Positions 3,937 through 4,278 of a stretch of 64,000 nt of DNA are shown here, piece by piece. Source of the stretch: a virus (taxonomy: Duplodnaviria > Heunggongvirae > Uroviricota > Caudoviricetes); the IMG/VR virus record IMGVR_UViG_2880389630_000005. One strand, 5' to 3'. The notes below the pieces were generated by a model. The model was not told the DNA's origin. It saw nothing but the letters and a program-made list of their open reading frames with translations, and ran no database searches. The translations under genes and the position numbers were made by a program. Position 1 is the first letter of the stretch. Each line of letters starts with the position of its first letter.

Positions 3937-4278
3937 ATGGAAAAGGTGATTGAAATTACCGCCCGCCGCGAGGGTTTTCGCCGCTGCGGTGTGGCACACA
4001 GCGCAACCACGAAGGCATGGCCTGTGGATGCGTTCACCCCGGAACAGCTGGCGGTGCTGAAGGCTGACCCCATGCTGATTGTGGTGGAGCGCGATAAAGC
4101 GTCCGGTCAGAACGACGCGGTCCGGGGTGATGAACTGGCCGCACAGCTGGATGCCGAACGTCAGAAAGTCAGCGAACTGACGGCGCAGCTGGAAGAAGAA
4201 CGCCAGAAAGTCAGTGAACTGACCGCACAGCTGAACGCCGCACAGAAAACACAAAAAGCGGAGAAAAAGGAGAAGTAA
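3937..4278 (+). CDS. hypothetical coiled-coil protein with tandem repeat
   Basis: 113 aa; C-terminal ERQKVSELTAQL repeated twice; KAEKKEK tail. Confidence 0.4.
   Translation: MEKVIEITARREGFRRCGVAHSATTKAWPVDAFTPEQLAVLKADPMLIVVERDKASGQNDAVRGDELAAQLDAERQKVSELTAQLEEERQKVSELTAQLNAAQKTQKAEKKEK

Follow-up and report, generated by a model that had tools for sequence, protein, structure and literature searches.

Analysis of a small head gene in a Mu-like prophage revealed a 42-nt tandem repeat that is almost certainly old, in frame and constrained at the level of the protein. The repeat lies in the open reading frame at 3937..4278 of the window (the whole 64-kb stretch of DNA analysed here), which encodes a small phage head protein, and as a repeat of the coiled-coil type it is unremarkable. 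We consider it reasonably probable that this old, maintained 42-nt array encodes the coiled-coil stalk of a decoration protein on the phage head.

Organization of the repeat

The repeat of ORF 3937..4278 was the top-scoring tandem repeat of the window. Tandem Repeats Finder reported it at 4132-4240 with a period of 42, 2.6 copies, 79% matches and a score of 148, and a repeat search resolved three in-register units with identities to unit 1 of 100/81/67% (Table 1), so that the array amounts to about 2.6-3 units. Each unit of 42 nt corresponds to 14 aa, or two heptads, and the start of every unit is in frame with the ORF; the consensus of the 14-aa unit is ELTAQLEEERQKVS. An earlier, sequence-only reading of this DNA had described an in-frame tandem duplication of about 39 bp at 4150-4240. 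The tandem arrangement and the reading frame were as described, whereas the period is 42 nt from start to start and the array is wider, extending over 4132-4257.

Table 1. Features of the repeat-containing head gene and its neighbours, in window coordinates.
Feature	Position	Strand	Description
113-aa ORF, 'HI1506-related protein' WP_000416602.1, gene in the gp35 position	3937..4278	+	ORF list; FluMu_N; phrog_6188; RefSeq
FluMu_N domain, aa 8-50 (whole N-domain fold ~aa 1-53)	3958..4086	+	Pfam; AF2; putative capsid-binding, trimerising domain
Repeat unit 1	4132..4173	+	ELAAQLDAERQKVS; same-position counterpart in other alleles 41/42 identical
Repeat unit 2	4174..4215	+	ELTAQLEEERQKVS; 34/42 nt identical to unit 1; same-position counterpart in L022 39/42 identical
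Repeat unit 3, degenerate	4216..4257	+	ELTAQLNAAQKTQK; identity to unit 1 28/42 nt; E. coli alleles carry 9- and 12-nt indels here
Lys-rich C-terminal tip AEKKEK	4258..4275	+	A-rich DNA; KKGK/KKEK/KKKG family-wide
Upstream gene, Mu-like gpT-family major head protein	3025..3933	+	Pfam Mu-like_gpT E 3.1e-94; annotated start 3025, ORF-finder start 2983
Downstream gene, Mu gp36-family head-tail adaptor	4282..4713	+	Pfam Phage_Mu_Gp36 E 3.5e-33; phrog_195

Within the array, the peptide ERQKVSELTAQL is present twice, encoded at nt 4156-4191 and 4198-4233, with the two starts 42 nt apart. The two 36-nt copies of this core (12 codons) differ at four positions (4161, 4173, 4182 and 4185), all of them third-position and all synonymous, and the longest exact match between repeat copies is 11 nt. 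A 12-aa core that is identical in both copies while the DNA differs by synonymous changes only points to constraint on the protein. Chance is excluded as the origin of the repeat: its best 42-nt self-match was 35/42, compared with a maximum of 29 in 2000 codon shuffles of the ORF and a maximum of 30 in 2000 shuffles of the C-terminal part, and no shuffle equalled the observed value (0/2000).

Elsewhere in the window, the sole other tandem repeat scoring above 60 lies at 35899..35940 (period 21, 2.0 copies, score 61; TCTGCGGCATACTTTGCGCT).

Gene family and genomic neighbourhood

By annotation, the window holds a Mu-like transposable E. coli prophage with genes for a Mu transposase, Mor, terminase, DUF935 portal, protease, gpT, the product of ORF 3937..4278, a gp36 adaptor and a tail sheath. 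The region is 100% identical to E. coli strains S13 and R4, where RefSeq calls the product of the ORF 'HI1506-related protein'. Over aa 8-50, the protein scores 30.5 bits with Pfam FluMu_N (PF17891; cut-off 25.8), and the ORF belongs to phrog_6188 (E 1.8e-51), which PHROGs lists with function unknown. The sequence-only reading had placed the ORF in the head region and given it coiled-coil character, and both descriptions agreed with the analysis: the gpT major head gene lies on one side of the ORF and the gp36 adaptor on the other, and the repeated segment is predicted to be helical and resembles a coiled coil. The order gpT major head gene, FluMu_N gene and gp36 adaptor is common to the window and to the related loci L022, L023 and L021. 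A blastn search of the ORF against the phage collection returned no match, and tblastn against the same collection returned N-domain matches only, from Klebsiella, Ralstonia, Vibrio and Pseudoalteromonas phages and none from Mu itself; a literature search turned up nothing useful on HI1506, Mu gp35 or a cryo-EM structure of the Mu capsid.

Several features of the surrounding DNA were observed in their own right. Between gpT and the protease/scaffold gene, a 131-aa ORF at 2619..3014 (+) was assigned to phrog_1731 'virion structural protein' (E 2.5e-55); it has no Pfam or NCBIfam match, JBD30 has no gene at that place, and the ORF may encode a second small capsid accessory protein. A 429-aa antisense ORF at 3220..4509 (-), lying over the gpT, HI1506-related and gp36 genes, has no Pfam or NCBIfam match and was rejected as spurious.

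In the gpT head protein of the window, BLAST against JBD30 gp38 (L024:2610-3524) aligned residues 15-178/12-180, 221-294/154-227 and 131-238/200-303 (window/JBD30), giving a segment order of A-C-B in the window versus A-B-C in JBD30 gp38 and in the Pfam Mu-like_gpT model. This Pfam model matches three stretches on the window protein versus one on JBD30, the proteins of L022 and L023 are ordered as in the window, and the apparent swap may be a permutation inside an HK97-fold capsid protein. Further downstream, 31496..35089 of E. coli S13 (L001), which corresponds to about 27.5-31 kb of the window, holds a truncated gp53-like gene at the tail-fibre end of the prophage. In S13 this gene abuts a truncated TonB-dependent receptor gene beside lysP, which suggests that the prophage was inserted into, or rearranged at, the receptor gene in that strain.

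Predicted structure of the protein

The AF2 model of the 113-aa protein (pLDDT 77.6) comprises strands at residues 3-9, 14-16, 19-21 (with a hairpin at 14-21), 26-29 and 47-53, with a helix at 35-43 before the last strand; beyond them, a single continuous helix runs over residues 60-112 with pLDDT of 81-88 in the repeat. In the heptad register, only L or V stands at 'a' between residues 71 and 99, and the 'd' position alternates between L and E. A simple test for a 3.5-residue hydrophobic periodicity was not significant (822/5000 shuffles reached the observed value) because every second 'd' is Glu. The R-h-x-x-h-E motif is a trimerisation motif, and inspection of the protein by eye found no instance of it. 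The repeat segment is net acidic (7 K+R versus 10 D+E).

Across the family, the Lys-rich tip is kept and the segment between the N-domain and the tip is not; some members lack this segment, and in others it is disordered or takes the form of a small helical domain, a coiled coil without repeats or a 14-aa repeat. An Arg-rich GFRR motif is kept in the N-domain.

Comparison of the N-domain profile with the PDB matched HI1506 (2OUT; E 9e-7) and JBD30 gp39 (8RKC/8RQE chain B; E 0.006; 427 chains, two entries), the latter chain being deposited as 'Mu-like prophage FluMu N-terminal domain-containing protein'. The top Foldseek match of the full-length model was likewise 2OUT (probability 0.94, 30% identity over 56 columns, E 0.13, TM 0.35), and 8RKC was absent from the best 50 Foldseek matches. 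In a direct hhalign comparison, the N-domain profile aligned with gp39 at 93% probability and E 3e-7 over 36 columns (window 15-50 / gp39 67-102), and the Pfam FluMu_N model scored 22.5 bits on gp39 (E 9e-5), under the cut-off of 25.8. On this profile evidence, the N-domain is distantly homologous to the capsid-binding domain of gp39.

Copy number among close and distant relatives

Copy number was surveyed in complete E. coli genomes, 54 of 5426 of which carry the gene, by measuring the span of the match to window 3937-4330. The span was 394 nt in 39/54 (392 where the alignment stops 2 nt early), 385 nt in 14/54 and 382 nt in 1/54. In the DNA alignment, these differences were 9-nt and 12-nt indels in the degenerate unit 3, and whole-unit differences occurred in 0/54. 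Among close IMG/VR relatives, the units stand at the same three positions in 20/20.

Whole-unit differences were found further afield. L022, whose protein is 84% and whose major head protein is 95% identical to those of the window, has four units; E. albertii has about two; and L023 has six, of which the internal four are most alike one another (35-37/42), a pattern that indicates an expansion specific to that lineage. A draft E. coli contig (L021, GCA_026723045.1) carries a perfect 42/42 extra copy of unit 1; the contig begins 84 nt upstream of the perfect duplicate, and an assembly artefact is therefore possible. Read together, these sequences argue that whole-unit gain does happen, rarely. 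In a profile search, 581 family members reached E <=1e-5, and in the full-length family members retrieved the matches to the repeat unit ranged from 0 to 6 per protein. A scan of genome contigs yielded 10 loci, mostly distant relatives with the N-domain only, which inform architecture and not copy number.

The sequence-only reading had foreseen possible length variation between isolates and had named the repeat copy number of homologs as the comparison to make. At close range that expectation found weak support, the unit number being constant in all of the complete E. coli genomes and IMG/VR relatives just described; it was borne out in the wider family, in which copy number differs between distant relatives (~2 to 6) and hardly between close ones, apart from the perfect extra unit of the draft contig.

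Database variants of 127-129 aa from complete E. coli genomes (P0011, P0013 and P0019) were considered as carriers of one additional unit and were rejected, being instead frameshifts in the A-rich 3' end of the gene (4240..4278, cagaaaacacaaaaagcggagaaaaaggagaag). The frameshifted proteins run on into the alternate frame of the downstream gp36 gene, and the shifts are either sequencing errors or real slippage at the A-runs. Separately, between about 4204 and 4275 the E. coli alleles fall into two classes, one ending in ...ERQKVSELTAQLNAAQKTQKA-KKEK (113 aa) and the other in ...ER[RG]KV[QR][DE]LTA[EA]LKAA-KADKKEK (110 aa). Divergence between the two classes rises abruptly at about 4204, with near-identical flanks, and this position looks like a mosaic recombination joint within the repeat.

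Age of the array

In a unit-by-unit matrix, each window unit matched the same-position unit of other alleles better than it matched the adjoining unit of its own gene. Unit 1 matches E2348/69-type alleles at 41/42 and unit 2 matches L022 at 39/42, whereas units 1 and 2 differ at 8/42 nt. Because same-position units are closer than neighbouring ones, the duplication predates the divergence of the alleles compared. In an alignment of 28 protein sequences, the last two units (ERQKVxELTxELExERQKVxDLTAQLEAA) are kept in homologs of only 35-60% identity. The proposal of a recent slippage or duplication event, as the sequence-only reading had it, was not upheld: units 1 and 2 share only 34/42 nt, same-position units of other alleles are closer (41/42 and 39/42), and the unit structure is kept in homologs down to about 39% identity. 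The near-identical units and frequent copy-number differences among close relatives by which a hypervariable or contingency repeat is recognised are likewise not what this array displays.

A proposed stalk on the phage head

Judged from its relatives and its gene order, the window protein is most likely a capsid decoration protein, and we lean, if only slightly, towards a decoration-protein stalk as the role of its repeat. We propose that the N-domain binds the mature head as a trimer, as its homology to gp39 and the synteny would predict. From each trimer, three helical extensions would then emerge and form a coiled-coil stalk some 7 nm long with the Lys-rich tip at its end, the trimeric state of the stalk being carried over from the gp39 trimers only. 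The length of the stalk would be set by the number of 14-aa units, and the array changes by gain or loss of whole units through replication slippage or unequal recombination. A whole-unit change leaves the frame and the phase of the heptads intact, which explains the 42-nt steps. Such events are rare, some of them old, as in the window, and others lineage-specific or very recent elsewhere. Several points weigh against the decoration-protein reading: the relationship to gp39 is distant, gp39 bears its extension at the opposite terminus, most of the contact residues differ, the periodicity test was not significant, and the prophage has a second candidate for a small virion protein at 2619..3014.

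A neutral history, in which a recent slippage duplication left a copy number that varies freely between isolates, is very unlikely. Whole-unit changes do exist, as the perfect 42/42 extra unit of L021, the four units of L022 and the six of L023 attest, but the L021 unit lies near the start of its contig, where it may be an assembly artefact, and the unit number is constant in 74 close relatives (54 E. coli, 20 IMG/VR). Moreover, the first two window units are 81% identical and each has a closer same-position counterpart elsewhere, the four core differences are all synonymous, and the unit pair is kept in distant homologs. An action of the repeat at the DNA or RNA level, whether regulatory, recombinational or antisense-coding, is extremely improbable. 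The 429-aa antisense ORF does cover the region, yet it lacks the family matches that the sense genes all have in strength, and inter-copy differences at synonymous sites are the signature of constraint on a protein.

Two further alternatives accept a protein-level role. In the first, which is unlikely, the protein would act in the head or in packaging by binding nucleic acid and not as an external decoration; its basic N-domain and its basic tail would contact DNA or RNA, and the helical repeat between them would serve for dimerisation or as a spacer. Such a nucleic-acid-binding role was reportedly suggested in the structure paper on HI1506 (2OUT), and it would agree with the conserved GFRR of the N-domain, with the Lys-rich C-terminus found across the family and with the small helical domain that HI1506 and L045 carry in place of the coiled coil. 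The repeat segment is net acidic, however, and gp39, the only family member seen in a virion, lies outside the mature capsid and is absent from procapsids (PMC11445458). Quite unlikely, too, is a strut of the cement or chainmail kind, with the helix lying flat on the capsid and bridging neighbouring decoration trimers or capsomers. By estimate, adjacent 3-fold sites on a T=7 head lie roughly one such helix length apart (about 50 residues, ~7.5 nm), and other decoration proteins make nets via extensions (PMC11445458); yet the length of a lattice-fitted strut should be fixed, and the L022 protein has 14 aa more on a major head protein 95% identical to that of the window. Among gpT-family heads, the extension can be missing altogether or exceed 90 aa, and the gp39 trimers are unconnected. 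Because the length of the segment varies on nearly identical head proteins, a strut in the lattice is unlikely and the freely projecting stalk that we favour is more plausible.

If the stalk model is true, these proteins would be natural phage-display scaffolds with an adjustable spacer length. Under the model, the 'HI1506-related / FluMu_N' proteins of enterobacterial Mu-like prophages, which are annotated without function, would gain a concrete, testable role as decoration proteins whose stalk is made of repeats, and the array itself offers an example of an in-frame, heptad-compatible tandem repeat that evolves by rare whole-unit gain under protein-level constraint. A more far-reaching picture, which we offer tentatively and regard as doubtful, is that the heads of Mu-like enterobacterial myophages bear about 140 trimeric coiled-coil 'hairs', each with a gp39-like anchor and a KKGK-type tip and with a length that grows by 2 nm for every further 14-aa unit, and that these hairs would serve adhesion to anionic surfaces (LPS, capsule or mucus) rather than stability. 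As the extension of the window protein is on the opposite terminus from that of gp39, the family would have gained a surface-reaching basic tip independently on either terminus.

Comparison with known systems

To our knowledge, no function has been demonstrated for HI1506, the FluMu gp35 of Haemophilus influenzae (2OUT), which belongs to the same Pfam family as the window protein. Its structure paper is said to describe an unstructured linker and a small helical C-domain where the window protein has its repeat coiled coil.

A close parallel to the window protein on a phage head is gp39, the minor capsid protein of Pseudomonas phage JBD30 and chain B of 8RKC, the decorated capsid (PMC11445458). 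The T=7 head bears homotrimers of gp39 at its 3-fold and quasi-3-fold axes; the trimers are not interconnected and lie outside the mature capsid, and procapsids are without gp39 (PMC11445458). The fold, a three-stranded sheet, a hairpin and a helix, was likened by the authors to the beta-tadpole of T4 Soc, and residues 1-52 are disordered (PMC11445458). The gene for gp39 (L024:3591-3932) occupies the same place as ORF 3937..4278, in the order protease, gpT-family major head, FluMu_N gene and gp36-family adaptor. Its product resembles the window protein in having 113 aa, a small domain, a flexible extension about 50-60 aa long and an end rich in Lys, and its order of secondary structure (strand, hairpin, strand, helix, strand) is the one predicted by the AF2 model.

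The two proteins differ in polarity. The folded domain of gp39 occupies the C-terminus (53-113), after an N-terminal extension that is rich in Pro, Thr and Lys, disordered and without a repeat, whereas the window protein has an N-terminal domain and a C-terminal, helical extension made of 14-aa repeats. The disulfide Cys67-Cys72 of the gp39 hairpin has no counterpart in the window protein, and most of the gp39 residues reported as capsid contacts are not kept there. Of the contact residues reported on the side of the JBD30 major head protein, only Lys66, which gp39 touches, recurs in the window, and those of helix alpha5 differ. JBD30 is a siphovirus, whereas the window prophage encodes a contractile tail.

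T4 Soc also forms trimers and stabilises the capsid; its likeness to the window protein is second-hand, via gp39, it has no coiled-coil extension, and no sequence relationship between the two was detected. For the proposed stalk, precedents are the phi29 head fibre gp8.5 and SPP1 gp12, which are analogues only, with unrelated folds: gp8.5 has a beta-tulip base and a helix-turn-helix supercoil, and gp12 consists of collagen-like repeats at the hexamer centres. In both, a capsid-binding base carries an elongated trimeric spike built of a repeating motif, and the spikes aid surface adhesion, not stability (PMC7602432).
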